This document shows, in pieces, positions 11,705 through 33,650 of a DNA stretch of 34,108 nucleotides (the first letter of the stretch is position 1; every line of letters starts with the position of its first letter). This DNA comes from an uncultured Bacteroidota bacterium (GTDB lineage: Bacteria; Bacteroidota; Bacteroidia; 2-12-FULL-35-15). The notes beneath the pieces were generated by a model. It was not told the origin of the DNA, ran no database searches, and saw only the letters and a list, made by a program, of their open reading frames with translations. The stretch spans positions 1 to 34,108 of the forward strand of contig CAIRRW010000506.1 of NCBI GenBank assembly GCA_903881065.1, given 5' to 3'. Position numbers and translations under genes: made by a program.

Positions 11705-11744
11705 AGAGTTATTAATAGTGCAAAGGCTTTTGTTATATACAAGA

Positions 11745-14700
11745 ATGAAGATATATTACTTTACATATTTTTTACTGGTTATCTTCCTTTCTAGTATTGA
11801 TAAAGGTTATGCCATCGGCATAAAATCTCCGCATCTGGAGTCTGCAATTAAATTTACCGAAAATAAAAAACAATGGGATAAACAAATTCTCTATCGTGCT
11901 CAATTGGATGGTGGGGTTCTTTTCCTCGAAAAGAATTGTTTCACCTATAGTTTCTATGATAAGGAAACGCTCCGCGAAAATCATATAGGAAATTATAAAA
12001 AGGCATCAACAAAAAAGAATGCACCTATACATTCACATGCTTTCAGAATGACTTTTATTAATGCTGAGAAATCTCCAAAAGTGTCGTCAACAAAGGTAAC
12101 AACTGATTACTGCAATTATTATATAGGTAATGATGAGAAGAAGTGGGCAGGTAATGTAAAAAATTATCGTGAGGTAAATTATAAAGGTTTGTATCGTGGC
12201 ATTGATATGCAAATTGAGGGCATGGAGAACACTGTGAAATATAATTTCATAGTGGCTCCTCATGCAAATACCAACGAAATTATATTGTTATATGAAGGAC
12301 TTGAAAAAATTTATCTTGATAAAGGAGCTTTAAATTTTGTTACTTCTGTAAACCAAATGCAGGAGCAGCCGCCTGTTACGTATCAAATTATTGAAGGAAA
12401 AAAGGTAATGGTGAATTGCGAATTTGTTTTAGAAAACAATACAGTACATTTTAATTTTCCGGAAGGGTATGATAAAAATAAAGAACTGATAATAGATCCA
12501 GTGCTTGTGATGGCTTGTTCTTCCGGTTCATTTGCAGATAATTTTGGAATGACTGCTACTTATGATTCACGCGGAAATTTATATTCGGGTGGTACTTGTT
12601 TCGGACAGGGATTTCCTACTACGCTTGGAGCGTATGATACTGTATATAATGGATTGGTGCAGCAAGGAAGAACGGATGTGGTGATAACAAAATATGATTC
12701 GGCAGGTACAGCTTTAGTTTACTCTACCTACTTAGGTGGTGCTACCGGAACAGAAATAGTAACAAGTCTGGTAGTTGACTACCAAAATAATTTACTGCTA
12801 TACGGAGCCACCGGTTCGTCTGATTTTCCTACCAGTACCACTGCTTACGACCAAACATTTAATGGCGGAACTTATTTAAGTTTTGTTGCAAATGGAACTA
12901 GATTTAATGGCGGAACAGATATTTATATTGCTAAATTTAATGCGACAGGCACTTCCTTATTAGCATCTACTTATATTGGCGGTAGTGGCAATGATGGTGT
13001 AAATAATAATAACGATACACTTTATATTCCTTCGTGGGGGGTGTATGAATATCCGCTGGACTCGCTGCAATACAACTATGGCGACCAATACAGAGGAGAG
13101 ATAAATGTGGATGCTTCGGGCAACGTTTATATTGCGAGTTCAACACGGTCAGCAGATTTTCCTATTGTAAATGGTTTTGATAATTCACTAGGCGGAAAAC
13201 AGGATGCGGTGGTTTTTAAAATGAACAGTAATTTATCTCAGCTAATATGGAGTACTTATCTTGGCGGAACGGATAATGATGCAGGGTATGCTTTGGTGCT
13301 GGATGATTCGCTTAATTTATATGTAACAGGAGGGACAAGGAGCAATAATTTTCCGACTACAGCAGGAGTTTTAAAGCCTAATTACTGTGGAGGGAAAGCA
13401 GATGGATATATTACGAAGATAAAAAAGGATGGTTCGGCAATTCTGAATTCTACCTATTGGGGTACTGCCAGCTACGACCAGAGTTACTTTGTACAACTGG
13501 ATCAGAATTCAAATGTATATGTTGTTGGTCAGTCGGAGGGCGCAATGCCAATAACACCGGGTGTTTACAATAATCCAAATAGTGGACAGTTTATTACAAA
13601 AATGAACAGCACCTTGAGTACACTTGTGTTTTCAACTGTTTTCGGAAATGGAAATGGTTTGCCAACTATTTCTCCTGCTGCATTTTTAGTTGATGATTGT
13701 GGTAATATTTATATGACAGGGTGGGGTGGAAATATTATTACCGGTGCTCCTACTTATAATATGCCGCTAACGCCGAATGCTATTCAGCCAACAAATCCAG
13801 ATGGTTTTAACTTTTATTTATTTGTGCTTACTACCAATGCAGCTTCATTGAATTATGCAACTTATTTTGGAGGAGCGCAAAGTAGAGAGCACGTTGATGG
13901 TGGCACGAGCAGGTTTGATAGAAAGGGAGTAGTGTACCAATCGGTATGTGCAGGTTGTCAGGGACATGATGATTTTCCTGTGAAGCCTGGTTGCTGGCCG
14001 TATACAAGTCCAAATTATACTGCTACCACAGGAATCAATTTTGCAAGTAATTGTAATAACGGAACATTCAAATTTGATTTTCAAGTTCCACCTATTACTG
14101 CTGTTTTCAGCGCAGATAGTCTGAAAGGCTGTGCGCCATTCTCCGTTACTTTTCATAATCAAAGTACTTCATGGGGAAATTATTTATGGAACTTTGGAAA
14201 TGGCGATACTACTTCAACAATATTCAATCCAACTCATGTGTTTAATACAGCAGGTACCTATCCCGTAACTTTATTTGTAAATAACGGAACTTGTTCCTCT
14301 AAAGATACAGCTATACATACTGTGATAGTTTATCCGCCAATCACCAGTGATTTTAATTTTGTAAATCCGCCTTGCACCAATACTGTTGTTTTTAAAGATT
14401 CATCTTATGCTTCACCTGCTGTGTGGCAATGGAATTTTGGTGATGGCAGTTCTACATCAACGCTTCAAAATCCTACACATATATATGCTACATCTGGAAA
14501 TTATAATGTAACACTTATAACAGCAAATGCTTTTGGTTGCAAGGATACAACAGTAATTAATTTTGATAATCTTTCAGGAGTAAGTGTCAATCCTTCTACA
14601 AGTATATGTACGGATAACAGTACGCAGTTATCTGCATTAGGCGGAATAGCTTATCATTGGTCGCCTTCGGCAGGTTTGAGCAATACTGCTATTCCCAATC

Positions 14701-15341
14701 CTACTGCTAATCCTGCAGTAACTACCAGTTACAGTGTAAATGTAACGTATGTTACAGCGCATCATGATACTTGTTCGCAGATATTGACTACAACAGTTTC
14801 AGTGTTTACACCCAGTACTTTCCCTCTTTCGGCAACCACCAATAAAGACACTATCACTCAGGGACACTCAACAATAATACATGCTGTTACAGATACGACG
14901 CTTTCAATACAATGGAGTCCGGCTAACGGGTTGAGTAGTGCAACGTCGTTTAATCCTGTTGCATCACCTTCTGTTACCACTACTTATACTGTTACAATTA
15001 CTGATTCATCAGGTTGTCCGAAAAATGCATTTATAACAATTTATGTTATCTCCATGAAATGTAATTCCGATGACGTGTTTGTTCCTAATACGTTTACACC
15101 CAATGGTGATGGGAAGAATGATATATTATACGTAAGGAGTAATAGTGTACAGGAAATTTATTTTGCCGTTTATAATCGTTGGGGAGAAATGGTATTTGAA
15201 ACCAATGATATTCATAAAGGATGGGATGGCATTTACAAGGGAGAGTTGGCGAATACTGATGTTTATGCATGGTATGTAACTGCAAAATGTTACAATGGCG
15301 ATGAGGTGAAGAAGAAAGGAAATGTAACATTAGTTAGGTGA
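11745..15341 (+). CDS. T9SS type-B cargo surface protein: signal peptide, SBBP-like beta-propeller repeats, PKD domains, gliding-motility-associated C-terminal domain
   Basis: N-terminal FTENKKQW...LIIDPVL module; repeated YSTYLGG/ASTYIGG/WSTYLGG/YATYFGG; PKD motifs WNFGNG and WNFGDG...QNPTHIY; C-terminal FVPNTFTPNGDGKND...YNRWGE...WDG...KKGNVTLVR. ATG 11745 preferred over GTG 11718. Confidence 0.9.
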   Translation: MKIYYFTYFLLVIFLSSIDKGYAIGIKSPHLESAIKFTENKKQWDKQILYRAQLDGGVLFLEKNCFTYSFYDKETLRENHIGNYKKASTKKNAPIHSHAFRMTFINAEKSPKVSSTKVTTDYCNYYIGNDEKKWAGNVKNYREVNYKGLYRGIDMQIEGMENTVKYNFIVAPHANTNEIILLYEGLEKIYLDKGALNFVTSVNQMQEQPPVTYQIIEGKKVMVNCEFVLENNTVHFNFPEGYDKNKELIIDPVLVMACSSGSFADNFGMTATYDSRGNLYSGGTCFGQGFPTTLGAYDTVYNGLVQQGRTDVVITKYDSAGTALVYSTYLGGATGTEIVTSLVVDYQNNLLLYGATGSSDFPTSTTAYDQTFNGGTYLSFVANGTRFNGGTDIYIAKFNATGTSLLASTYIGGSGNDGVNNNNDTLYIPSWGVYEYPLDSLQYNYGDQYRGEINVDASGNVYIASSTRSADFPIVNGFDNSLGGKQDAVVFKMNSNLSQLIWSTYLGGTDNDAGYALVLDDSLNLYVTGGTRSNNFPTTAGVLKPNYCGGKADGYITKIKKDGSAILNSTYWGTASYDQSYFVQLDQNSNVYVVGQSEGAMPITPGVYNNPNSGQFITKMNSTLSTLVFSTVFGNGNGLPTISPAAFLVDDCGNIYMTGWGGNIITGAPTYNMPLTPNAIQPTNPDGFNFYLFVLTTNAASLNYATYFGGAQSREHVDGGTSRFDRKGVVYQSVCAGCQGHDDFPVKPGCWPYTSPNYTATTGINFASNCNNGTFKFDFQVPPITAVFSADSLKGCAPFSVTFHNQSTSWGNYLWNFGNGDTTSTIFNPTHVFNTAGTYPVTLFVNNGTCSSKDTAIHTVIVYPPITSDFNFVNPPCTNTVVFKDSSYASPAVWQWNFGDGSSTSTLQNPTHIYATSGNYNVTLITANAFGCKDTTVINFDNLSGVSVNPSTSICTDNSTQLSALGGIAYHWSPSAGLSNTAIPNPTANPAVTTSYSVNVTYVTAHHDTCSQILTTTVSVFTPSTFPLSATTNKDTITQGHSTIIHAVTDTTLSIQWSPANGLSSATSFNPVASPSVTTTYTVTITDSSGCPKNAFITIYVISMKCNSDDVFVPNTFTPNGDGKNDILYVRSNSVQEIYFAVYNRWGEMVFETNDIHKGWDGIYKGELANTDVYAWYVTAKCYNGDEVKKKGNVTLVR

Positions 15342-15350
15342 AATTGAAAG

Positions 15351-16385
15351 ATGAAAAGAGTAGTGATAATATTATTTATTTGTTTTTCTTCTCTTTTCTG
15401 GAGCGGAGCAGGAGGTGATTTGTCTGCACAGGATATTCATTTTTCTCAGTTTAATGCTTCTCCTCAAAATTTAAATCCTGCACAAACAGGTTTATTTAAT
15501 GGTGATTGGCGATTTGTTGGAAACATTAGAAGTCAATGGGCTGCTGTGCCTGTGCCCTACCGAACGCTTTCTGTTTCTGCAGATAATCGATTGAAAAAAG
15601 ACTTTGCGGGAGGAACCATTGCGGTGGGATTAATTGTAAATACTGATAAGTCCGGCGATTCCAAATTAAGTACAACCAATGTTTATCTCTCACTATCATA
15701 TATAAAAAAGTTGACAAAGGACTCTACACACTTTATTTCCATTGGAGTACAACCTGGCGCTACAACAAAAAATTTCAATCCTTCGGCTTTAACATTTGAT
15801 AGTCAGTATGACGGCGATAGTTTTAATCCTGCATTACCTACTGGTGAAAACTTTACAAATTATAGAATAACTTATTTTGATATTGGGGCAGGATTGGCTT
15901 ATTTATATAGAAAAAATAACAGGTTGTTTGCAAATATTGGTGTTTCGGCATTGCATCTTACTCAGCCTAAAGAATTATTTTTCGGCAGTAGCAGCAGCCA
16001 ATTGGATATTAAAACTGCCGTAAGCAGTATTGTTGAATTCCCTGTTTCGGAGAAGCTGGATGTGGTGCCAACTGTCTTATATCAACATCAAGGAACGTAT
16101 AACGAAACAGTAGCTGGAGGATTTGCAAAATATTATTTAGCCCATGAAGATGGCATGACATCAGCGATTGCCTTGGGAGGTTTCTATCGTATTAAAGATG
16201 GTTTTATTGTTGCTGCGAATATGGATTATCGGAATTTCAATATAGGAATAAGTTATGATGTGAATACTTCTAAACTTATTGCGGCAACAAATCATAGAGG
16301 AGGATTTGAAGTTTCAGTGATTTATATCTTCAGAAAAATTGTTCCTTTTGTTGCGAAAAAAAGAGTCTGTCCTATTTATATGTAG
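15351..16385 (+). CDS. PorP/SprF family type IX secretion system outer-membrane protein
   Basis: AQDIHFSQF...LNPAQTG...RSQW N-terminus, GISYDVNTSKL...GGFEVSVIY C-terminus; 9 nt downstream of a type-B CTD gene, the usual pairing. Confidence 0.9.
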   Translation: MKRVVIILFICFSSLFWSGAGGDLSAQDIHFSQFNASPQNLNPAQTGLFNGDWRFVGNIRSQWAAVPVPYRTLSVSADNRLKKDFAGGTIAVGLIVNTDKSGDSKLSTTNVYLSLSYIKKLTKDSTHFISIGVQPGATTKNFNPSALTFDSQYDGDSFNPALPTGENFTNYRITYFDIGAGLAYLYRKNNRLFANIGVSALHLTQPKELFFGSSSSQLDIKTAVSSIVEFPVSEKLDVVPTVLYQHQGTYNETVAGGFAKYYLAHEDGMTSAIALGGFYRIKDGFIVAANMDYRNFNIGISYDVNTSKLIAATNHRGGFEVSVIYIFRKIVPFVAKKRVCPIYM

Positions 16386-22633: not shown

Positions 22634-24316
22634 TTAATAATTTATCTCGTACAGATAAGCAGGTTCGTCAGTTCCTTCCGTTTTCAGAAGTTTCAATTTT
22701 TCAGGATATTTCTGAACTACAGGTCCAAGCATTCGTTGAATAGTATTAATAATTCGTCCGTTGTTTTTCTTTGGATTCTGACGCAGGTTAGGCATTATAA
22801 CGTATTTCACATTTTCTTTTTTCCAATCCATCAGCACCGTATCTGCATTCTCGGAATTTACAATATACTGACCAACAAACTTTTTGCCCTTACCATATAT
22901 AAAACTCATGTTAGGTTTGCGCGATAATACCTGTGCATCTTTCGGCAAGCTGTCGGCACAGTACTTACTAAGTTTAAGGAAATTTTCCCAATCAGGAGTG
23001 TATCCATAATACATATCTCCACTCATATTTTTCTTTAATGCAACGAAATTTTGTTTCGCATTAATACTTGATTTACCTAAGGAAATAACCAGCATAACGA
23101 TTGAAAACGCGATGAAGAAAAATTGTAATGTCGAATTTCGTTTTGCAAATTCATACATTCCATAAAATAGTACCAGAAAAATAAGGGGAATGGCAATTAT
23201 AATTAATCGCGACTGCATGTTGTTTGCCTGAACACCAAAAAATACGCCACCTACAAGAGCAATCAGATAAATGCTAGAGAAGAAAATAAATTTATTTTTC
23301 TTGTAACTAAAGAATGTAAATACCGCAAGAATTATTGTAGATACAAATGAAAGTGCAGGTAAAGGAGTAATTGTTTCACCATCTAGAACCTCTATGCTGC
23401 CAATCAACCGGAGGTTAAAAATTCGATACATATGATAGGAAACGTACGTATTAAAATTAGCGAAGAAGCGGTCTATCATTCCACCCATATCTTCATGTCC
23501 ACCTTCTGGTTTATACAAGTCTTTTCGTAACATTAGTTCCAGTTGATTTGAATCATTGGCTCCATACATTGAAGTGGTAATTAACTGGTAGATGCCACGG
23601 AATACAAGGTAAGCGGCGAGTGCATAAACGATTTGCTTATAGTTTTTATTTAATAAGAAGTAGAGTAAAACCCCTGCAATGGTAACAAAAGCAATACTCT
23701 TGGAAATAGTTAATACAACAAACATCAATCCGAACAGCAGCCATAATTTATAGTTCTCCTTGAAACCTTCTGCCCATCCTGCTTTCTCGTTGATGTTGTC
23801 AATAATATTAAAGGTGATGTACAAACAGATAGATTGAACAAATAGAAAAAATGTTTCGGTATAGGTCTGACTGGCATAATACTGAACGAAATTATTCACA
23901 GAAATAAATGCAATCAACGCGAAAAGAACAGTATATGGTATGCGTTTGCGGAAAGTGAGATACGTTACCCATACAAAACCGAACTGACAAAGAACAGATA
24001 GAAATTTAAGAGCAACAATATTTAATCCGAATATTCTCATGAAAAAAGAAAGTATCACAGGATAACCTGGCCCTTGAAAATAAGGGAACTTGCCTTCGTT
24101 TATCAACGACCATGCTCGTTCAATATAACTGGAATCATCCCCACCTAATGACACTTTGGAATCGAACAAAAGCAAAGTAAATAATGTAGAAAGAAATAAT
24201 ATTGAGTAAAATACTTTCTTGTCCCTGGCTTCTAGCCATTTATTTAAATTGTCCAGCATACCTGTCTTAACTGGTTGCGAATTTTTCTTATTTGCGGGTT
24301 GATTCTTTTTAGACAT
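22634..24316 (-). CDS. Polytopic membrane protein, probable GT-C (ArnT/PMT-like) glycosyltransferase
   Basis: GGDDSSY after first TM, PGYPVILS, YTETFFLF, SRLIIIAIP, and a small C-terminal soluble domain (VLSRKP...VKYVI). Confidence 0.65.
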   Translation of the reverse strand: MSKKNQPANKKNSQPVKTGMLDNLNKWLEARDKKVFYSILFLSTLFTLLLFDSKVSLGGDDSSYIERAWSLINEGKFPYFQGPGYPVILSFFMRIFGLNIVALKFLSVLCQFGFVWVTYLTFRKRIPYTVLFALIAFISVNNFVQYYASQTYTETFFLFVQSICLYITFNIIDNINEKAGWAEGFKENYKLWLLFGLMFVVLTISKSIAFVTIAGVLLYFLLNKNYKQIVYALAAYLVFRGIYQLITTSMYGANDSNQLELMLRKDLYKPEGGHEDMGGMIDRFFANFNTYVSYHMYRIFNLRLIGSIEVLDGETITPLPALSFVSTIILAVFTFFSYKKNKFIFFSSIYLIALVGGVFFGVQANNMQSRLIIIAIPLIFLVLFYGMYEFAKRNSTLQFFFIAFSIVMLVISLGKSSINAKQNFVALKKNMSGDMYYGYTPDWENFLKLSKYCADSLPKDAQVLSRKPNMSFIYGKGKKFVGQYIVNSENADTVLMDWKKENVKYVIMPNLRQNPKKNNGRIINTIQRMLGPVVQKYPEKLKLLKTEGTDEPAYLYEINY

Positions 24317-24383: not shown

Positions 24384-24439
24384 AACCTCTCACTTTTATT
24401 CTGCTGTCATAAATTATTGCAGAATGAAAATGAGAGGTT
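24384..24439 (-). terminator. Long hairpin downstream of the PqqD/ATP-grasp operon; probable terminator
   Basis: aacctctca-c-ttttattctgc ... gcagaatgaaaa-tgagaggtt; T-rich sequence follows on the minus strand. Confidence 0.55.
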
Positions 24440-24584: not shown

Positions 24585-25667
24585 CTATTTTATCAATGCC
24601 AATCCTTGCAATGCTGATGTATCACCAGGAGCAAGCATTAATACTTTATTAAACAAGAGTTTAGCTTCTGCTGTTTTGCCTGTTTTGAAATTTGCCCATG
24701 CGTATAATATTAAACCATCGTAACTAAAAGGATATAGATTTACTACTTTCTCGAGATATTGATAAGCAGCGGAATAATCGTTTTTTGAATAATAATAAGA
24801 TCCAAGACCATAATTCGCAAAACTATTTTGAGGATTTATTTCAACAATTTTCTTGTTTTGTTTGCTTATTTCATCATAGTTACCTAATGCACCTAGCGGA
24901 TAATTGATGCCAAAGCGAGGTTCAATAGAATTTGGCTTTAAGTCAATTGCTATCTGATAATATTTAATCGCCTCCTTATTAAGCCCTGAAAGGTAATTTA
25001 ACCATCCCATACGCAAGTTAACATCATAATATTTAAGATCGTAAATGTCTTTTATTGAAGTTATAGCGGAAGCATAATCTTTTTTATATTCAAAATCATA
25101 ACTTTTCGCAAATGCAGCAATTACTTTATCGCTTTGCTTCTCCGACTTGTTTATCTGTTGCCAGGTGTCTCTTAAATAAGGCTCATAACCGGAAGGATAT
25201 AAACTAATTATCTTCTCGAATTGTTTTTTGGCTAGGTCATAGTTCTTTTTGTTGTAATAAATATAGCCTAACTGATAGTTGGAATTAACATCAAGCGGAT
25301 CAACTTCCAATATTTTTTTATAAACTACTTCTAATTCATCCATTTGATTTTGTGCATAAACAGGATAAATGAGTCCAGTTTTTGCTTCAATGGAATAAGG
25401 CATTAATTTAACAGCATTTTGGTAATAAGTAGCAGACTCCTTATTCTTTCCTGCTTTATAGTACAACCAGCCCAACCGAAGATTCTCTTCGTAAGAAGTA
25501 GTTTCATAACTATCCATAAGCGCTTTTATTGCGCCATCATAATCTTTATTTTTTTCAGCTGCATAACTTTTAGAAAAAGCACTTGCCAACTTAACATTTT
25601 GAGCAAACGAATTGTTGATACTCAATAAGAGGATACCTCCGATAATAATTTGTTTGATTTTTTTCAT
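24585..25667 (-). CDS. Secreted TPR protein with an internal ~155-aa tandem duplication
   Basis: Signal peptide ending SFA-Q; TPR patterns (NLRLGWLYY, NYQLGYIYY); AFSKSY at aa 30 recurs as AFAKSY at aa 185. Confidence 0.85.
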   Translation of the reverse strand: MKKIKQIIIGGILLLSINNSFAQNVKLASAFSKSYAAEKNKDYDGAIKALMDSYETTSYEENLRLGWLYYKAGKNKESATYYQNAVKLMPYSIEAKTGLIYPVYAQNQMDELEVVYKKILEVDPLDVNSNYQLGYIYYNKKNYDLAKKQFEKIISLYPSGYEPYLRDTWQQINKSEKQSDKVIAAFAKSYDFEYKKDYASAITSIKDIYDLKYYDVNLRMGWLNYLSGLNKEAIKYYQIAIDLKPNSIEPRFGINYPLGALGNYDEISKQNKKIVEINPQNSFANYGLGSYYYSKNDYSAAYQYLEKVVNLYPFSYDGLILYAWANFKTGKTAEAKLLFNKVLMLAPGDTSALQGLALIK

Positions 25668-25684
25668 GATTCTAATTGAAGGGT

Positions 25685-27217
25685 TTATTTATTTGTAAAT
25701 TTATTAAAGTTTTTAATTCGTATTCCAATAAAAAAACTGTTGTAATAATAATTAAGTGTTACAGGTAAATTTGTTCGTTTATCTGCAGGAACGGGCAAAG
25801 TAGTTAAATTGTTTTCATAGGTGTAAATTGCAAAAAAGTCAAGATGCTTTCCTGCAGGAATATTGCCAATAATTGAAAGTCGAGAAAGTGTTTTATCTGA
25901 TGAATTATTTATGAAAAGTCCGTTCCCTTCAATAATATTATTATTTGTATCGTCTTTTTGTTTATCATTAAAATCAACCAAATAGTTTAATGTAAACGAA
26001 ATCTTACTAGTAGGCATAAATGTAATATAAGGTGATATTGCTGCCCTTCCTTCAGCCGAATCAATAGTATAAACATAGTGTGCATCACATCCAATTACAA
26101 GTCGGTTATTACCAAATGGGGCATAGGATATAGAAAGAGTACTCTGTACCCTCTTAGTGTTGTTAATATTTGAAAAAGTATTTCCAAGAGCTAAAGATAG
26201 ATTGGAAATGTATTTCGAGACAGTAAATGCCTCAACAAAATAACTACTATGTGAGGTTGATTGTGAACTTAGTAATTTTGGGTTGAATGGTACTTCTACA
26301 ACTGTAGGAGGACCCATAGGAGGATGACCAATAATAGTACCAAATACAGTATTTTCTGTTTTGTGAAGAATATTACTACTAATATAATGTACTGCTGGTG
26401 ATATACTCCAATTTTTTTTTAAAGGAATATTTGCTCCCAGATAATATTGATATTGATTGGTAATATCGTCATTATTATTTATTATTGGTGCAGAAAAATG
26501 GTTGGTTGAATTCACTGGAAAAGGAGGAGGGTCGTGTAAATCAAAAGTTTTAAAGCCATGATTATAATGCGAACTTTCCTGATTAAAATAGGTAAAGGCA
26601 TGAAATAAATAAATCCTATTCTTTACGTAATGCCCCAAAGCAACCTGAAAATACTTGGCGGTGGAATAATGGATTGAATCAGTTTTATTTACAGTAATTG
26701 AATCATTATTGCGAATATTATTTAATTGTTCAGGATGTGGGTTTTCTAAATAAGATGAACTTGGCTGTTTAACACCACCACTCATCTGTATTAAAGCTAG
26801 TGATGATATTTTATCTATTCCTGTTTTAGCTATCAACTCGGTATCAAATGACTTACTTAGAACTCGCGCATCAACATATCTGCCTGAATAAATATAACAA
26901 TAGTATAGATATTCTTTCGAAAGATTATCACCTGAATAAAACGTTAAAGCCTTCTGAAATTGTTTAGTGGCAAACAGATATTTTTTTTTCTCATAATAAG
27001 CAATCCCGAGTCTCAAACGCAAATAGTAATAATCAAAATCCTTTTTTATTGCTTTGTTAGAGAAGGTAATAAGTTCGTTCCAATTCTTGTCAATATAAAG
27101 CTGATAAGATTTTTTTTCAACAAAGGCCGTATTTAGTGTGTCTTGGGCATAAGTTTTCCCTAAAGTAAAAATGAAAAGTAAGATAATTATTCTCCGATAT
27201 TTTCCGCTGAAATCCAT
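25685..27217 (-). CDS. Exported protein with N-terminal TPRs and probable C-terminal outer-membrane beta-barrel
   Basis: Signal peptide ending TYA-Q; YYYLRLRLGIAYYEKKKY TPR; later alternating aromatic/polar strands (YQYYLGANIPL, WSISPAVHY, LDFFAIYTY, FFIGIRI). Confidence 0.65.
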   Translation of the reverse strand: MDFSGKYRRIIILLFIFTLGKTYAQDTLNTAFVEKKSYQLYIDKNWNELITFSNKAIKKDFDYYYLRLRLGIAYYEKKKYLFATKQFQKALTFYSGDNLSKEYLYYCYIYSGRYVDARVLSKSFDTELIAKTGIDKISSLALIQMSGGVKQPSSSYLENPHPEQLNNIRNNDSITVNKTDSIHYSTAKYFQVALGHYVKNRIYLFHAFTYFNQESSHYNHGFKTFDLHDPPPFPVNSTNHFSAPIINNNDDITNQYQYYLGANIPLKKNWSISPAVHYISSNILHKTENTVFGTIIGHPPMGPPTVVEVPFNPKLLSSQSTSHSSYFVEAFTVSKYISNLSLALGNTFSNINNTKRVQSTLSISYAPFGNNRLVIGCDAHYVYTIDSAEGRAAISPYITFMPTSKISFTLNYLVDFNDKQKDDTNNNIIEGNGLFINNSSDKTLSRLSIIGNIPAGKHLDFFAIYTYENNLTTLPVPADKRTNLPVTLNYYYNSFFIGIRIKNFNKFTNK

Positions 27218-29385
27218 TTATCTTTTTCCTTAATTGTAAACTTTGATATTCTATTGTTAGATAATTCCAACTCGAAATTAATTTCTCTGTTATTTCCTCC
27301 TACAGCTTTGGCAATAGCGTTAGAAGCAATCTTTATTTTTGTAGGGTGTTGATAGTCGTCAATTTCTTTAAATGTGGATGAGTATTTTGCTTTTAGGAAT
27401 ATAGAGAATGGTGCAATAAAATCCTGCAGTGTTTTTATAATGCCAGGATAGAATCCGCTTATCGGTAAAGCATCAGTTACCTTCATTTCGTGGAAATAGC
27501 TCAATAAAACTTTATGTGTTCCCAAGTAGAAATAATAAAGTAAAGAGTCAGTATCACCTTTAAATGAAGTAAAATAATGCAGTGTTTCATTATTCACAAA
27601 ATAAGCAATTGATTTTGTTTGGTGACAATACATATAAGTTAGGTTTGCCGAATCGACAAATACTTCCCATTTCACTTTTGATTTCTTATCACCATTCGTC
27701 ACTTCAAACTCCATAACCATTCCTGGTGTAAAATGAAATGCTTGAGTCAATAATGGAGTAGGAGTAGTCCTGAATATTTGCTGACCCTCCAAAGGATAAT
27801 CGAAGGAATGAAATTCGTATTTATTATTTTGTTTTGATACATAATATGCAATAGGATATTTCAATGTCTTCGCCCCAACAAACTCAGTTGACTGAAGTTG
27901 GAAATGAATATGCGGTTCAGGCGAACGGCCTGAATTACCACAATTAGCAAGGATATCACCTTTCTTTACATAATCTCCAATTTTAACTTTAAAACTATTT
28001 GCTTTAATATGACTTATCTTGCTGAAAAAATAATCACCATGTTTTATTACTATTGAATTGCCCCAGTTTTCTCCAAGATTCACATCTCCAATAGCATTAT
28101 CTTCTATTCCATCCACAAGGTTAATAATGTAACCTGCACAAGGAGCGAGGATCGGCAATGAATAACAAAAGAAATCTGAAACTTCTTTTCCTGGAAGTTT
28201 AAATGTTTTTTGTGTTTCATCTGTTACTACAAAGTCCCAAGCGTAGCGATAATCTTCCTTGTGAGTTATTTCTCCTTCATGCGCCTGCGATACAAACCAT
28301 TGTCCATAAAAAGGAAGATGAATATGAAAATAAGTGTCATTTTTAAATCGCTCCAAACTATTAGTATAGGCATATAAATTCTTTTCAGGGGAAAACTGCT
28401 GGTATTGAACAAGGTTAAGTTTGTGCACGAAATACCTATTGTTCAATGTGAATATTATTAAAATAACTACTAGTGAAAAAGGAAGAGAATATAATGGCAA
28501 TTGAAAAACTCCAATCATATTTCCTAACGCACTTATCATTAACCCTACCAAAGGAACAGATATTAATGCCCATAAATAGGAGCGAGTAGAAGCAATTAAA
28601 AAATATCCACCGATGGCAATTGCAGATAAAATATAATTAAAACCTATATAACTATATTCCAGTTCAGATAAATTCCCTTTGACAAAATAGCAAAACAGAT
28701 AACCGGTAAAGAAGCCTACAATAGAAAGTGAAAATGCAATGCGCGAGTATATAAATAATCCAATCATTATTAATAACCCTGATATAATATTGTATTGAAA
28801 GAAGATTGCTCCTAATGATTTTAGATATACTTCAGCAAGTAATGGGAATTTCCAAGAGTTTGTTTTTTCATAAATATTAACGAGTGTCGCTCCTCCAATA
28901 TTCCATAATTCATTGAAAGAATAAATGCTTCTTTCACTTAATTGTAATGCTCCAAAACTTCGTGAACACAGAAGAATCATCCAAATGCCTATTATGAAAG
29001 GCAAACTTAAAAATGGAACTTTATAAGCTGAAAATACGGATGCAATTGAAACAGTAAGAATAAGTGTTAGGAAAGAAGCGATTAGTAGCATCACGAAAAA
29101 TGGTATGGTACAATGGAAAAATATTCCCATCGCAAGACCAGTAAGTAATGAATTGTAGCTGTATGTTCCACTTCGGATTATAATTGGATTAAGACCTAAT
29201 AGTTTTGCGAAAAAGATAGAAGAAAGTGCACAGATAATCCCGCTTAATCCGGTAAAAGGATCAATAAAAGAGGCAGCAATAACAAAAAGTGCAAGCCAAA
29301 TGTTGTTCGAAAACAACATTTGGCTGTAACTATTTGTTATACTATCTCTATAAAACTTTACCTGCTCTTTTACGCTACCCTGCAC
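27187..29385 (-). CDS. Urea-transporter-family-like membrane domain fused to an M23 (DD-metalloendopeptidase) domain and a C-terminal unknown domain
   Basis: Two-repeat membrane half: SYSQMLF..N / SGTYSYNSLL / PFLSLPF and SLGAIFFQYN / GFNYIL / PLYSLPF. M23 motifs TH...YAWDF, PILAPCAG, WGNSIVIKH, SHI, GNSGRSPEPHIHFQ. GTG start 3 nt after the upstream stop. Confidence 0.8.
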   Translation of the reverse strand: MQGSVKEQVKFYRDSITNSYSQMLFSNNIWLALFVIAASFIDPFTGLSGIICALSSIFFAKLLGLNPIIIRSGTYSYNSLLTGLAMGIFFHCTIPFFVMLLIASFLTLILTVSIASVFSAYKVPFLSLPFIIGIWMILLCSRSFGALQLSERSIYSFNELWNIGGATLVNIYEKTNSWKFPLLAEVYLKSLGAIFFQYNIISGLLIMIGLFIYSRIAFSLSIVGFFTGYLFCYFVKGNLSELEYSYIGFNYILSAIAIGGYFLIASTRSYLWALISVPLVGLMISALGNMIGVFQLPLYSLPFSLVVILIIFTLNNRYFVHKLNLVQYQQFSPEKNLYAYTNSLERFKNDTYFHIHLPFYGQWFVSQAHEGEITHKEDYRYAWDFVVTDETQKTFKLPGKEVSDFFCYSLPILAPCAGYIINLVDGIEDNAIGDVNLGENWGNSIVIKHGDYFFSKISHIKANSFKVKIGDYVKKGDILANCGNSGRSPEPHIHFQLQSTEFVGAKTLKYPIAYYVSKQNNKYEFHSFDYPLEGQQIFRTTPTPLLTQAFHFTPGMVMEFEVTNGDKKSKVKWEVFVDSANLTYMYCHQTKSIAYFVNNETLHYFTSFKGDTDSLLYYFYLGTHKVLLSYFHEMKVTDALPISGFYPGIIKTLQDFIAPFSIFLKAKYSSTFKEIDDYQHPTKIKIASNAIAKAVGGNNREINFELELSNNRISKFTIKEKDKWISAENIGE

Positions 29386-29388
29386 AAT

Positions 29389-30747
29389 TTATAATTTGAA
29401 ATCTTTTAAATATTTTGGCGTTACTTCGTCTCCCTGAATACTATTTAATGTTTCTCGGTTCCTTATAATATGAGCTTTTTCTTCCATATCAATCATTATA
29501 ATTGCCGGTCGCAATGCAATAAACTGCATCCATTGTGTCATATTATACGCTCCCACTGTATGCACTACCACATGGTCATCTCGTTTTAATGGTGGCAAGG
29601 TAATGTTTTCACGAATAACATCAATATTCATACACAATGGGCCATACAATACAGCGTCTTCGGTATATTGGCTAAACTCCTGTGCCGGACTAACTTTATG
29701 GTCATACCAGAAAGAAGTGAATAAAATATTTACTCCGAAATCCATAATTGTTGCACGTCTTCCATCTGCTAATCGTTTGTTCGAGATAACTGTTCCTAAC
29801 AATGATCCTGCTTCATCTATTAACGCCCGTCCTGTTTCAAGTATTAATAAAGGTAACTCGTTCTCAACAAAACCTGCATTTAAAATCGCTGTAGTTATTG
29901 CTTCAGCAAACTGATCAAAGGATGGAGAAGAGTCCGCACCTTGTAAATACGAGCCTTTTAGCGTGTTTTTAGATGCAAAACCTCCACCCATATCAATGTA
30001 TTCAACATTCTTTTTATATTTCTTTTTGATGCTTAAAGCAAGTTCCGAAAGTTTGGAAGCTGCCACACCGTAAGCACTAGGAGCCAACATAAATGTTCCT
30101 ATATGTGAATGCAAGCCTACTAAATCCATAGTGTCATTCAACATTATTTTGTTGATGGCATCCCAAGCCTGTCCATTCTCATAGTTGAAACCAAATCTGT
30201 CCCACATCGGATATACTCCAGTGTCCATATTCACTCGTATTGCTACTCTAGGTCGCTTTTTGGCATTTGTTGCCAACTCTTTTATCAAATATAATTCATC
30301 TAAATGATCAATATGAATCAATGAATTATTCTCAATAGCAAGTTTTAATTCTGCTTCTGTTTTATCTGGACCGTTAAAAATAATCTTATTTCCCGGTACC
30401 CCATTATGTAAAGCTTTGTTGTATTCAAAACCCGATACAACCTCCGCCCACGAACCTTCTTGGTGAAATACATTACAAACTGCATTGTTGTAATTCGTTT
30501 TGTACGACCAGGCAAACTGCACTTTAGGATAACGTGTTTTAAACGCTCTATTCGCATCTCTTAAAGTCCTGCGGATGGTCTTTTCGGAGATTACAAATAA
30601 TGGTGAACCATATTTATTTATAAGTTCTTCTACCGAATTCCCATCAATATGAGTTACCGGTGCGTATTCAGTTTTCTTTCCGAATTTGTTCATTACCCCA
30701 ACGTTCAAACGTTGTATTACGGGGCGTTCATACTGTAGTCTTTTCAT
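29389..30747 (-). CDS. Fold-type III PLP-dependent decarboxylase (LysA/ODC superfamily), substrate probably not DAP, with N-terminal extension
   Basis: YGSPLFV, WSYKTN (PLP Lys), IIFNGPDK, HSHIG, DMGGGF, ETGR, GPLC, VGAY. ATG 30747 preferred over TTG 30771. Confidence 0.88.
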   Translation of the reverse strand: MKRLQYERPVIQRLNVGVMNKFGKKTEYAPVTHIDGNSVEELINKYGSPLFVISEKTIRRTLRDANRAFKTRYPKVQFAWSYKTNYNNAVCNVFHQEGSWAEVVSGFEYNKALHNGVPGNKIIFNGPDKTEAELKLAIENNSLIHIDHLDELYLIKELATNAKKRPRVAIRVNMDTGVYPMWDRFGFNYENGQAWDAINKIMLNDTMDLVGLHSHIGTFMLAPSAYGVAASKLSELALSIKKKYKKNVEYIDMGGGFASKNTLKGSYLQGADSSPSFDQFAEAITTAILNAGFVENELPLLILETGRALIDEAGSLLGTVISNKRLADGRRATIMDFGVNILFTSFWYDHKVSPAQEFSQYTEDAVLYGPLCMNIDVIRENITLPPLKRDDHVVVHTVGAYNMTQWMQFIALRPAIIMIDMEEKAHIIRNRETLNSIQGDEVTPKYLKDFKL

Positions 30748-30830
30748 ATTCTGTATTGTTATATTGTTCAATGGTTATATTGTTGTTGTGTCACTTGATT
30801 TTCAAATTAGCACATTCAAAAATTTAATCT

Positions 30831-31880
30831 CTATAATTCTCCTAAAGTTGAAATCTTTTCAAACTCTTCTAACTCTACAATTAAATCGTATGAATATCTA
30901 ACAAATAATTTACCCACATCATACTTTTTAAAAGGTTTTACATCTTCACCTAATGCCAGACTTACCAATGCTTCCGGATGGTTTTGTCCACAACCTACTG
31001 CCAGGTAAACCCATGCTGGGAAACGAGGATTAATCTCCAACAAATAATAATCACCTTCATTGGTTTTAATAATCTCTAGTTCCATACCACCTCTCCATTT
31101 ACAGCCTTTAAAAAGCTTTTTCGTCATATCCAGCAAGTTTTTATCATCCAGTGATATACCTGACCATGCTTTCCCTTTGTCTGTAATGTACTGTTTACGC
31201 ATCGGTACAGCACCTATCACATTTCCTTTGCCGTCTCCTATGGCTGTTACATTTACTTCCTGGCCATATACCATTTCCTGAATGATAATTGGCAAGCCCC
31301 ATTTAGCGCTTATCTTATTGAAATAAGTGGCAGCTTGTTCAGGTGTATAAGCAATCGAAGCATCATAAAATTTACCTTTAACAACTAATGGATAAGTAAA
31401 TTCATCTTTAAGTGCAGGTATTTCAGCAGTACTGAAAATCATTTTTCCATACGGAACTTTAATGCCGTGTTTCCTTCCATACTCCGAAAGATTTGCTTTG
31501 TGACGCTCCTCAAACTGTTCCAAAGTAGGTAGAAATGTTTTTATCTTCATTTCCTTTTTTAACGTATCCGCCAACGTGATAAAATTATAAAGCTCAGCAT
31601 CAAAGTTTGGAATCAATACATCAATCTTTTCTTTTTCATGTATATATTTCAATCGTGTAAGCAATGCAGCCTTTCCTGTCGATGGAAATGGAATCTGGTA
31701 TGTTTTGTCAACAAGATCATGCATATAAATACCCGGCTCCAATGTCTCATACGAAAGCCCAATGATGCGTACATCATATAGTTTACTTTCTTTCAATGCA
31801 CGTATTACCGGCACTCCCGGGCCGGGACTGTCAATGGCATTTAAGCCGGTAACAGCTACATTAATCTTTTTTCTTTTCAT
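30831..31880 (-). CDS. ATP-grasp ligase (stand-alone, CarB-like single domain)
   Basis: VAVTG...GPGVPVIRAL pre-ATP-grasp start, IDVLIP, YPLVVKG, IIIQEMVYGQE, MELE, YLLEINPRF. Confidence 0.9.
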   Translation of the reverse strand: MKRKKINVAVTGLNAIDSPGPGVPVIRALKESKLYDVRIIGLSYETLEPGIYMHDLVDKTYQIPFPSTGKAALLTRLKYIHEKEKIDVLIPNFDAELYNFITLADTLKKEMKIKTFLPTLEQFEERHKANLSEYGRKHGIKVPYGKMIFSTAEIPALKDEFTYPLVVKGKFYDASIAYTPEQAATYFNKISAKWGLPIIIQEMVYGQEVNVTAIGDGKGNVIGAVPMRKQYITDKGKAWSGISLDDKNLLDMTKKLFKGCKWRGGMELEIIKTNEGDYYLLEINPRFPAWVYLAVGCGQNHPEALVSLALGEDVKPFKKYDVGKLFVRYSYDLIVELEEFEKISTLGEL

Positions 31881-32121
31881 CGTTTTCTGTAAGTTTTATT
31901 TTACTTAACATCTCCACAAAGTCGAAATAATCTTTTTCAAAACTTACCTCATCTATCATGTATAGTTTTACAATGGCAGCTTTTATTTCCTGAGGAGTTT
32001 TCTCTTCCTTAAGCATTTTTATTATCTCCAACCCTATCGGATTAGTTGAATAGGAGTCGCCTGTTGATGGATCAAATACAAATCCCGAATCGCTTAATGC
32101 TACGTTTCTTTTTATTTTCAT
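31861..32121 (-). CDS. Stand-alone PqqD-family protein (RiPP recognition element fold)
   Basis: 86 aa with the PqqD pattern FVFDPSTGDSYSTNPIGLEIIKML...TPQEI...IVKLYMID...DYFDFVEML; overlaps the ATP-grasp start by 20 nt. Confidence 0.85.
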   Translation of the reverse strand: MKIKRNVALSDSGFVFDPSTGDSYSTNPIGLEIIKMLKEEKTPQEIKAAIVKLYMIDEVSFEKDYFDFVEMLSKIKLTENDEKKKD

Positions 32122-32153
32122 TGATATTATTATTTGTAAGTCTATATTAATGT

Positions 32154-32161
32154 CAAAAGTA
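32154..32161 (-). promoter_or_regulatory. -7 element TACTTTTG driving the PqqD-ATP-grasp operon
   Basis: Plus-strand caaaagta = minus-strand TACTTTTG, 32 nt upstream of the PqqD ATG; no clear -33 TTTG seen. Confidence 0.6.
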
Positions 32162-32209: not shown

Positions 32210-32905
32210 CTAATTAGCTAAATGGCGCATTGCATCCTTCCTGTATTTATTACCAATCGGAATCTCTCGTCCGGCAATTGAAATGATTCTGCTTTTTACA
32301 TTTTCGATTCTATTCAGAGGAATAATATATTTACGATGAACACGTATAAATTCATTCGTGTTTAATTTCGATAGCATCATTTTCATAGTAAGTCGGGTAG
32401 TTATCCGCTTCTGATTCTGCAGGTAAATATTAATATAATCTCCCAGTGATTCAATATAAAGTATATCCGAAAGTATAAACTTCCTCAATCCATAATCAGC
32501 ACGCAGAAACATATTTGGTTTTTCTTCTGCATTATTGCTATTCAATTTAATGTTGTAATTTAAAATAGCTTTATTCAACGCTACAGATAATCTGTCTTCC
32601 GAATAAGGTTTTAGCAGAAAGTCAATAGCATTCATGTTATATGCATCCACAGCAAGGTCTTTTGTTTCCGAAACAAAAATAACCATGGTGTTTAGCTCCG
32701 ATAATAATCTGAAATCAACCCCCGAACCTTTTGCCATCTCAATATCTATAAACAGCAAGTCAACTGGCGATTTGTGCAAATATTTCAGTCCTTCATTAAT
32801 AGTAGTAAATAGCTTTTTGAGTTGAAACCTTTGCGAATCAATACACCCTTTTTCTATAATTTCTTTAAACAAAGGTTCTTTATCTATAATTATGGCTTGT
32901 AACAT
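32210..32905 (-). CDS. LytTR (LytR/AlgR) family response regulator
   Basis: REC domain DLLFIDIEM...AIDFLLKP; LytTR domain DILYIESLGDY...FIRVHRKYII...IPIG. Confidence 0.92.
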   Translation of the reverse strand: MLQAIIIDKEPLFKEIIEKGCIDSQRFQLKKLFTTINEGLKYLHKSPVDLLFIDIEMAKGSGVDFRLLSELNTMVIFVSETKDLAVDAYNMNAIDFLLKPYSEDRLSVALNKAILNYNIKLNSNNAEEKPNMFLRADYGLRKFILSDILYIESLGDYINIYLQNQKRITTRLTMKMMLSKLNTNEFIRVHRKYIIPLNRIENVKSRIISIAGREIPIGNKYRKDAMRHLAN

Positions 32906-33047: not shown

Positions 33048-33650
33048 TTAATCCAACAGCGAATTCAGAGATTTTCTGTCCTTTTTACCCAGATTTTTAT
33101 AGTCGCTTACCGTATAGCCTGTAATCTGTTTAAACTGATTGCTCAAGTATTGAACACTGCTGTATCCCATAAAATAAGCTATTTCACTAAGCGTATATTC
33201 ATCATAGCTTATCATCTCCTTTATTTTCTCCGCTTTTATAAGTATAATATATTTCTCCAAAGTCATTCCGGTAGTTTCCGAAAACACCTTGCTCAAATGC
33301 TGATACGATTGTTGCAGCTTCTCACTCAAATAATCCGAATTCTTGATCAGCGAAGTATTATTATTACCATAAAAAACAAACTGAATCACTGTAGTCTTTA
33401 TCTTTTCCACCAGCTTTTTATTCGTATCCCGCAACAGTTCGAAACCATTTTTTTTCAGAATCTCATTCACCACATCCAAATTAAATACCTGCGTATCCAG
33501 CTGAATCTCCGCTTCACCCAAGCTCACATTTATCACTTCTATAAACCCCGTCCGTTCCAGTTCCTGCCGCACTAGTTTAATGCAACTATCACTCACCATA
33601 TTTTTAATATAGATAATCGTTCGTGTAGTATTGAAGTTATGTTTTTGCAT
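33048..33650 (-). CDS. AraC-family transcriptional regulator with N-terminal HMA-like domain
   Basis: IYIKNMVSDSCIKLV...LGEAEI...GFELL HMA-like start; YQHLSKVFSETTGMTLEKY, LSEIAYFMGYSSVQYLSNQFKQITG AraC HTH. Confidence 0.92.
   Translation of the reverse strand: MQKHNFNTTRTIIYIKNMVSDSCIKLVRQELERTGFIEVINVSLGEAEIQLDTQVFNLDVVNEILKKNGFELLRDTNKKLVEKIKTTVIQFVFYGNNNTSLIKNSDYLSEKLQQSYQHLSKVFSETTGMTLEKYIILIKAEKIKEMISYDEYTLSEIAYFMGYSSVQYLSNQFKQITGYTVSDYKNLGKKDRKSLNSLLD

Follow-up and report, generated by a model that had tools for sequence, protein, structure and literature searches.

Lasso peptides are matured by a stand-alone PqqD-fold protein, the recognition element (RRE) of peptides that are made on the ribosome and modified after translation (RiPPs), together with a protease and an ATP-dependent amide-bond enzyme. 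The GAK / HPr-rel-A system combines PqqD and ATP-grasp proteins with HprK-related kinases. In butirosin biosynthesis (BtrI/BtrJ/BtrK), an ATP-grasp ligase and a LysA-fold decarboxylase work sequentially on a tethered amino acid, and vibrioferrin synthesis pairs the ATP-grasp enzyme PvsA with the LysA-like decarboxylase PvsE. In the rhizoferrin pathway of Francisella (FslA/FslC), the decarboxylase FslC acts on an amide-conjugated amino acid, N-citrylornithine. Pearlin pathways build an amino-acid-derived product on a peptide scaffold, as set out in excerpts of PMC9303977 and PMC9016710. Here we analysed a stretch of 34,108 nucleotides (nt), one contig (CAIRRW010000506.1) of the genome of an uncultured Bacteroidota bacterium (GCA_903881065.1; about 33% guanine plus cytosine (GC), 96.8% complete), which we call the window. 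Its minus strand carries, between positions 24585 and 32121, six co-oriented genes that combine proteins like those of these systems with a channel-peptidase fusion. In order of transcription, the cassette comprises the following genes.

31861..32121, minus strand: PqqD-fold/RRE protein, 86 amino acids (aa); PF05402 at 30.3 bits against a cut-off of 23.4
30831..31880, minus strand: ATP-grasp ligase, 349 aa; PF15632 (ATPgrasp_Ter) and PF02655 (ATP-grasp_3); overlaps the PqqD gene by 20 nt
29389..30747, minus strand: pyridoxal phosphate (PLP)-dependent decarboxylase of the alanine-racemase fold (FslC/LysA-like), 452 aa; PF02784 and PF00278
27187..29385, minus strand: three-part fusion (UT::M23) of a urea-transporter-type (UT) channel, an M23 metallopeptidase and a beta-rich C-terminal domain, 732 aa; Pfam UT and M23
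25685..27217, minus strand: secreted tetratricopeptide-repeat (TPR) and outer-membrane beta-barrel protein, 510 aa; AlphaFold2 model with a predicted local distance difference test (pLDDT) value of 80.6
24585..25667, minus strand: secreted TPR protein, 360 aa; many TPR families

The coordinates in the list of open reading frames (ORFs) of the window agree exactly with the six-gene array of the initial annotation, including its junctions. In the direction of transcription, the first and fourth junctions are overlaps of 20 and 31 nt, and the second, third and fifth are gaps of 83, 3 and 17 nt. The 83-nt gap holds for the decarboxylase ATG at 30747, which gives the 452 residues usual among homologues; the frame is open upstream to a TTG at 30771 (460 aa), with which the gap shrinks to 59 nt. 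The domain set assigned there (PqqD, ATP-grasp, decarboxylase, UT-M23 and TPR) was likewise recovered, by Pfam for five proteins and by the AlphaFold2 model for the TPR-barrel protein.

The six genes form one conserved unit. Across 80 genome loci that carry the ligase, at 68-92% ligase identity, PqqD lies just upstream in all 80, the decarboxylase is present in 77, UT::M23 in 64, the barrel gene in 55 and the TPR gene in 52, and the median gaps along the cassette are -7, 15, 19 and -21 nt. The 64 loci with UT::M23 preserve the order PqqD-ATP-grasp-decarboxylase-UT::M23. Ten of the 16 loci lacking UT::M23 stop at a contig edge and six bear other genes; in half of the latter, a LytS-type kinase and a LytTR regulator come next. 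Insertions that separate the decarboxylase gene from UT::M23 occur sporadically and encode an IS200 transposase, type IX secretion cargo, a multicopper oxidase plus peroxiredoxin, or a cytochrome c. The IS200-like transposase sits between the two genes at 12545-13033 of locus L013. In a metagenome scan seeded with distant relatives, UT::M23 follows the decarboxylase in 63 of 80 loci, whose GC content ranges from 0.24 to 0.72. The order holds down to 38-48% ligase identity, with an approximately 205-aa TPR protein coming next in the annotated loci; these distant loci were assigned to other lineages by GC content and identity only. An even sample of the phylum gave the same picture, in that the ligase (E<=1e-40) was found in 12 of 151 genomes and full-length UT::M23 in exactly those 12, two further genomes having an ordinary M23 match only. 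In the 10 carriers that were inspected, UT::M23 lies 1.4-2.5 kb downstream of the ligase on the same contig and strand. The gene-neighbourhood check called for earlier thus came out in favour of strong co-occurrence in other genomes, and the cassette is an accessory trait.

Natural fusions tie the enzymes together further. Among the 150 ligase-family representatives listed, single proteins join PqqD to ATP-grasp (P0094) and ATP-grasp to the decarboxylase (P0051), and locus L085 has PqqD followed by an ATP-grasp-decarboxylase fusion. These fusions suggest that ligation and decarboxylation are coupled, as had been proposed.

No described pathway was found to match this set, in keeping with the initial annotation, which had recognised none. 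None of the six proteins reaches a curated NCBIfam equivalog, none (0 of 6) matches the PADLOC models of anti-phage defence, and our literature search returned no description of the PqqD/ATP-grasp/decarboxylase/UT/M23 set, UT+M23 fusions being possibly listed in supplementary tables. The gene set is not described in the accessible portions of PMC8939145, PMC12710340 and PMC13622209. The UT+M23 architecture is mentioned, with no function given in the accessible part, in PMC12998343 (2026). The earlier exclusion of PQQ, lasso-peptide and ranthipeptide loci also stood, as radical SAM, lasso cyclase and B2 protease domains are all missing from the operon. Regarding the PQQ operon, neither PqqB nor PqqC nor a radical SAM domain occurs in the other five cassette proteins; no genome-wide search was made for the remaining pqq families. 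The lasso machinery is alike in its stand-alone PqqD-fold RRE, its protease and its ATP-dependent amide-bond enzyme. The cassette differs in having M23 instead of the transglutaminase-like B2 protein and ATP-grasp instead of the asparagine-synthetase-like cyclase; no precursor was found, and its PqqD protein scores 25.9 and 19.3 bits with the lasso PqqD models of NCBIfam against cut-offs of 70 and 80. Compared with graspetide clusters, no adjacent precursor was found and no graspetide-specific model is among the 12 NCBIfam models listed for the ligase. The GAK / HPr-rel-A system is set apart by a score of 18.6 bits with TIGR04353 (PqqD_rel_X; cut-off 35) and by the lack of a kinase gene in the cassette.

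The butirosin system is alike in that BtrK is a detectable relative of the decarboxylase. The six proteins contain no carrier-protein domain, however, and BtrK is far weaker a match than FslC or the diaminopimelate (DAP) decarboxylases, so that of the BtrJ/BtrK analogy drawn initially only a loose likeness survives. FslC of Francisella is closer, but the cassette ligase is of the ATP-grasp type and not a synthetase of the non-ribosomal-peptide-synthetase-independent siderophore (NIS) type; the cassette has neither an IucA/IucC-type domain nor siderophore transport genes. Pearlin pathways and peptidase-containing exporters offer a parallel in which a product is made on a peptide and then cut off by an export-coupled protease. 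Pearlin clusters use tRNA-dependent PEARL (peptide aminoacyl-tRNA) ligases and encode their scaffold, whereas the cassette has an ATP-grasp enzyme and no scaffold gene was found; unlike the peptidase-containing exporters, its membrane part is a UT channel and not an ATP-binding cassette (ABC) transporter. On these comparisons we would describe the cassette as a candidate RRE-associated biosynthetic cluster with an unprecedented channel-peptidase export part, though there is a fair probability that it belongs further afield.

A profile of 15 homologues of the 86-aa PqqD protein found the lasso B1 protein TbiB1 as its best solved match (6.6e-11) and also TfuB1, while no cut-off of the NCBIfam PqqD subfamilies was reached. 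The N-terminal motif LA(L/I)S-x-x-GF-x-F-x-P-x-x-G-x-S-x-x-x-N, on the binding face, is retained even in distant loci. The C-terminal tail varies among homologues, and its use as a LysW-like attachment site was ruled out for that reason. This is the only PqqD-family gene of the genome. The ATP-grasp ligase is nearest to the NCBIfam models for PRK12767 ('carbamoyl phosphate synthase-like'), far under their cut-offs, and its best solved relatives are 2pn1, an unstudied 331-aa protein, and carbamoyl phosphate synthase. Its E282/N284/R286 motif is invariant in 15 aligned sequences. The family is large, with at least 6822 sequence clusters at E<=1e-40, every one generically named, and many relatives (P0010, P0018, P0027, P0032 and others) are about 710 aa long, with two tandem ATP-grasp modules. 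A predicted complex of PqqD and the ligase scored 0.02, with a mark of 0.32, and carries no weight either way.

The decarboxylase has as its best solved relative N-citrylornithine decarboxylase FslC (7kh2, 4.6e-58), ahead of DAP decarboxylase (1.3e-38) and BtrK (2.4e-23). Its NCBIfam scores lie below both relevant cut-offs, at 237.5 bits for FslC (NF041039, cut-off 500) and 218.3 for lysA (TIGR01048, cut-off 297.9). The PLP lysine is kept; at the active site the sequence is GPLCMNID, where FslC has GPSCMQHD and DAP decarboxylase GGLCESSD. The Glu and Ser of the CES motif of DAP decarboxylase are thus missing, CM being common to the cassette enzyme and FslC, and the Arg of the 'RPamY' stretch of DAP decarboxylase is missing from both. 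We take the CES motif and this Arg to be the residues that bind the distal site of DAP. The enzyme is consequently not a LysA by either measure, with a score under the TIGR01048 cut-off and CMNID in place of CESSD. The genome itself has no canonical lysA above 297.9 bits, and the cassette decarboxylase is its best LysA match. Canonical lysA is also missing from five relatives of the same genus (G006, G008, G009, G015 and G016); assembly gaps, a different enzyme for the step or auxotrophy for lysine could account for its absence from all six genomes. Of the 30 relatives compared, G007 and G027 carry a canonical lysA together with an operon-type gene, and G008, G009, G015 and G016 carry neither; a full-length decarboxylase of the operon score class (about 211-218 bits) occurs in 3 of 19 genomes of the genus.

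The fourth protein, the only UT gene product of the genome, has three parts.

28447..29346, minus strand: UT (urea-transporter family) channel domain; PF03253, 205.8 bits in one scan and 202.9 bits (cut-off 25) in another
27886..28323, minus strand: M23 metallopeptidase domain, approximately residues 355-500; Peptidase_M23, 48.6 bits against a cut-off of 28.7
27190..27873, minus strand: beta-rich C-terminal domain, residues 505-732; confident AlphaFold2 model, no Pfam family

The AlphaFold2 model of the fusion (pLDDT 84.5) matches the Desulfovibrio urea transporter (3k3f) with a template-modelling (TM) score of 0.85 in Foldseek and also matches M23 folds. The first domain belongs to the UT family by Pfam score, by fold and by the pore signature LPxxSLPF, kept in both repeats with Ser replacing the usual UT Thr; the fusion scores 130.7 bits with the Yut equivalog (cut-off 274.6). 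Fold, Pfam score and two-half pore signature are shared with the urea transporters dvUT, UT-A and UT-B, from which the cassette channel differs in being fused to M23 and a further domain, in its Ser for Thr, and in the lack of a urease in the genome. Pfam score, fold and conserved residues likewise place the second domain in the M23 family. H375, D384, H459, H492 and H494, which by analogy are presumably the zinc ligands and catalytic histidines, are the same in all 16 close and all 18 distant homologues, the first motif being spaced H-x8-D and not H-x3-D. Because these residues are invariant, the M23 peptidase looks active. For the C-terminal domain, the best look-alike in the ESM Atlas reached only 0.81, and Foldseek of the whole model gave UT and M23 matches only.

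The M23 and C-terminal domains probably face the cytoplasm, a prediction that we hold with moderate confidence. The model has no membrane helix after the last UT helix and none between UT and M23. Across 16 family members, the stretch past the last UT helix carries 6.1 Lys plus Arg and 3.1 Asp plus Glu, and the central loop 3.0 and 3.6, respectively. Mammalian UTs have their two termini inside the cell and the central loop outside it. The absence of a helix, the charge bias and the mammalian topology together point to a cytoplasmic M23. Cleavage would then precede export, and the earlier idea of cleavage across both membranes was not borne out. In locus L165 (G045:C1), of a complete genome, a frameshift at about 5475-5520 falls precisely within the conserved PEK-NLY linker motif and leaves UT and M23 in separate frames; we rejected it as a true split that could report on topology, there being no real gene boundary, and the frameshift could stem from a sequencing error, mark a pseudogene or be a deliberate split. 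Among 73 shorter UT::M23 matches, seven on long contigs were read, and none of the seven starts with a signal-peptide-like segment, which carries little weight as they are possibly fragments. The UT::M23 family also includes a Spirosoma protein.

The last two proteins of the cassette carry signal peptides. The model of the 510-aa protein shows a signal helix, TPR-like helices (residues 30-132) and a beta-barrel of roughly 16 strands (140-502), with Foldseek matches to FadL, OmpG and porin barrels. The protein itself has no Pfam family, TPR Pfam families match 15 of 19 family members, and Atlas look-alikes by language-model likeness are YaiO-type barrels with TPR (0.96); the YaiO family PF19413 matched none of the 19 members at E<=0.1. 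PgaA, BcsC, AlgK/AlgE and YaiO-type proteins are alike in an architecture of TPR at the N-terminus and a barrel at the C-terminus, accompanied by a separate TPR protein in the periplasm, but the cassette lacks PF19413 membership and any glycosyltransferase or polymer synthase. The 360-aa TPR protein, which weakly resembles YbgF/CpoB and BamD-type models, is a tandem duplication of the usual approximately 205-aa unit, with halves 43% identical; homologues measure 200-217 aa in most loci, and the duplicated form was found in this genome and its two closest relatives (L001 and L002).

We tentatively propose, as one possible account, that the six genes constitute a single biosynthesis-and-export cassette acting in the order ligation, decarboxylation, release by M23 and export. 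In the cytoplasm, the ATP-grasp enzyme would form an amide bond between an amino-acid unit and a partner with a carboxylate or an amine. The PqqD/RRE protein, coupled to it in translation, would assist and would most likely present a peptide whose gene lies in another part of the genome. Next, the FslC-like PLP enzyme would strip the alpha-carboxyl group from the attached unit. M23, on the cytoplasmic side of the UT-type channel, would free the small decarboxylated product, which could exit via the UT pore and be helped past the periplasm and outer membrane by the TPR and TPR-barrel proteins. The nearness of the decarboxylase to FslC, an enzyme for an amide-conjugated amino acid, is consistent with this proposal. 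The tight junctions, the conserved order and co-occurrence, the fusions, the invariant M23 residues, the retained pore signature, and the signal peptides, TPR and barrel of the last two proteins also speak for it. A peptide partner is plausible, judging from sequence, because of the PqqD fold, the conserved binding-face motif and the PqqD-ligase fusion. A narrower form of the proposal, in which the RRE guides ligase and decarboxylase on an elsewhere-encoded peptide and M23 at the channel mouth releases the unit straight into the pore, strikes us as doubtful.

Several observations weigh against this proposal. No conserved precursor-like small ORF (20-130 aa, outside large genes) emerged from clustering in 80 loci, and the gap upstream of PqqD (73 loci, ATG-started ORFs of at least 12 aa) holds no recurrent peptide, such searches being liable to miss very short, fast-evolving or elsewhere-encoded peptides. 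The largest small-ORF family, in 8 of 80 loci and about 880 nt upstream of PqqD, is anti-sigma-factor-like. The peptide, if there is one, would therefore be encoded elsewhere or be part of another protein. The six loci with other genes in its place hold PqqD, ligase and decarboxylase without an adjacent UT::M23, and L085 has none, which indicates that, locally at least, UT::M23 is not needed for the first three genes to function. The placement of M23 is predicted from homology and a modest charge bias. Finally, a UT pore admits only molecules roughly as large as urea and is far too narrow for a peptide, which would limit the exportable product. The initial annotation had the operon ligate and decarboxylate amino-acid units on a peptide scaffold and then move and cleave the product. 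The unit and the coupling of its enzymes stand; for the scaffold there is the PqqD fold alone and no scaffold or precursor gene conserved in or beside the cassette, and the predicted site of cleavage was revised.

Signals and regulators around the cassette are as follows.

32154..32161, minus strand: TACTTTTG, a -7 promoter box of Bacteroidetes type, 33 nt ahead of the PqqD ATG
24384..24439 (about), minus strand: hairpin and U-rich stretch, candidate terminator; 20-bp stem, -26.2 kcal/mol, z = -6.8
32210..32905, minus strand: LytTR-type response regulator (Response_reg and LytTR), directly upstream; associated rather than core
33048..33650, minus strand: AraC-family regulator (HTH_18, HTH_AraC); associated rather than core

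The promoter box proposed at the head of the operon is present at a fitting position, but the window holds 47 copies of its motif where chance would give 53, and we therefore regard TACTTTTG as a positional consensus match only. The hairpin proposed after the tail, about 146 nt past the last stop codon, is real by its folding energy, which none of 200 shuffles equalled; a terminator scan of the window did not list it. That scan did list a hairpin with a perfect 14-bp stem at 29294-29325 (minus strand), within the 5' coding region of UT::M23, about 60 nt past its start. Downstream of the cassette, a weakly PMT_2-like membrane glycosyltransferase gene (22634-24316, minus strand) lies outside the unit, as it is beside the cassette in none of the 80 genome loci. 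The left part of the window holds rplA-rplJ-rplL-rpoB-rpoC, a type IX secretion cargo gene accompanied by PorP/SprF, and genes for a TPR protein and for a large histidine kinase. The cargo is a 1207-aa protein (11718-16385, plus strand) that contains DUF7948 and PKD along with a type IX secretion signal of the CHU_C family, followed by the PorP/SprF gene in a typical cargo-partner pair.

No regulator is universal across 160 loci. A response-regulator cluster occurs near the cassette in 37 of them (31 match the LytTR protein of the window best), an AraC homologue just upstream in 36 and a LytS-type kinase in 17; other recurrent neighbours are extracytoplasmic function (ECF) sigma factors (12), LTXXQ/Metal_resist (12), anti-sigma-like proteins (9), ZnuA-ABC (9) and AcrB (7). 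This recurrent pattern suggests control by envelope or metal stress. Metal or redox genes stand beside or within the cassette in a minority of loci, a possible hint of a link to metal stress.

L041, 8979-9617: SCO1/SenC
L045, 6243-8576: multicopper oxidase and peroxiredoxin
L054, 9206-9745: LTXXQ
L116, 8172-9917: ZnuA
L030, 2740-3108: cytochrome c

These neighbours, the failure to find a precursor peptide and the position of FslC, an enzyme of rhizoferrin synthesis, as the nearest solved relative of the decarboxylase all fit a conjugate made without a scaffold. The ATP-grasp enzyme would then join a free acid, such as a di- or tricarboxylate, to a free amino acid, and FslC-like decarboxylation would yield a metallophore or polyamine conjugate, with chemistry as in rhizoferrin, staphyloferrin B and vibrioferrin and with PqqD merely a ligase adaptor subunit. 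We consider such a product unlikely. The conserved genes include no NIS synthetase, TonB-dependent receptor or usual exporter, each metal-related neighbour occurs in a minority of loci, the peptidase would have no evident role, and a metallophore is too big for the UT pore. For the PqqD fold, moreover, no role other than peptide binding is known, and the motif on its binding face is kept across lineages.

The cassette could instead remodel the envelope or peptidoglycan peptides under stress, with a Ddl-like ligase, a DAP-decarboxylase-like enzyme and M23 acting on wall peptides, and with TPR proteins linking the activity to the outer membrane, in a loose parallel to the Van cassettes, which combine a ligase and a zinc peptidase. 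All three enzyme families include cell-wall members (the ligase weakly resembles Ddl, with PF07478 at 5.9e-4 and Ddl models; the others are LysA-like and M23), and the nearby LytS/LytTR, ECF sigma with anti-sigma-like protein and CpxP/Spy-like LTXXQ genes are of envelope-stress type. The likeness of the TPR protein to YbgF/CpoB and BamD-type models points the same way, as does a cassette that is patchy among genomes yet highly conserved, like an accessory resistance cassette. We nevertheless give wall remodelling little credence as well, as the DAP-binding motif is missing from the decarboxylase, M23 is probably cytoplasmic, no Mur, Pbp or amidase genes are conserved nearby, and PqqD and the intact UT pore signature would be left unexplained.

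Uptake and assimilation of urea or a urea-like amide through the UT, with the fused hydrolase and the other enzymes processing it, would account for a genuine UT domain with its pore motif kept and for an outer-membrane barrel that could admit small solutes. This is very improbable in our view: no urease alpha subunit was found in the 96.8%-complete genome, which makes classical urea uptake unlikely, ATP-grasp and decarboxylase are anabolic, M23 enzymes are peptidases and not ureases or amidases, and PqqD would be left unexplained. That the genes are unrelated housekeeping genes side by side, with the decarboxylase as the LysA of the cell, would suit the lack of canonical lysA here and in G006, both genomes having the operon-type gene as their best LysA match, and is scarcely credible, being contradicted by the relatives that have both types or neither, by the presence of the cassette in only 12 of 151 genomes with strict co-occurrence, by the fusions and by the altered DAP-binding motif.

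The cassette is common in environmental bacteria, including lineages of very different base composition, and its peptide-recognition protein is combined with enzymes of kinds not known to tailor RiPPs. Its apparently active peptidase is attached to a urea-type channel, an architecture that is in print but unexplained. Working out the cassette could uncover a novel chemistry of natural products or signals, a further function of UT channels and a role of M23 peptidases in the cytoplasm. If the proposed channel-coupled, peptide-templated pathway is true, it would give UT channels a second natural role, the export of a small amide or amine signal or protectant.

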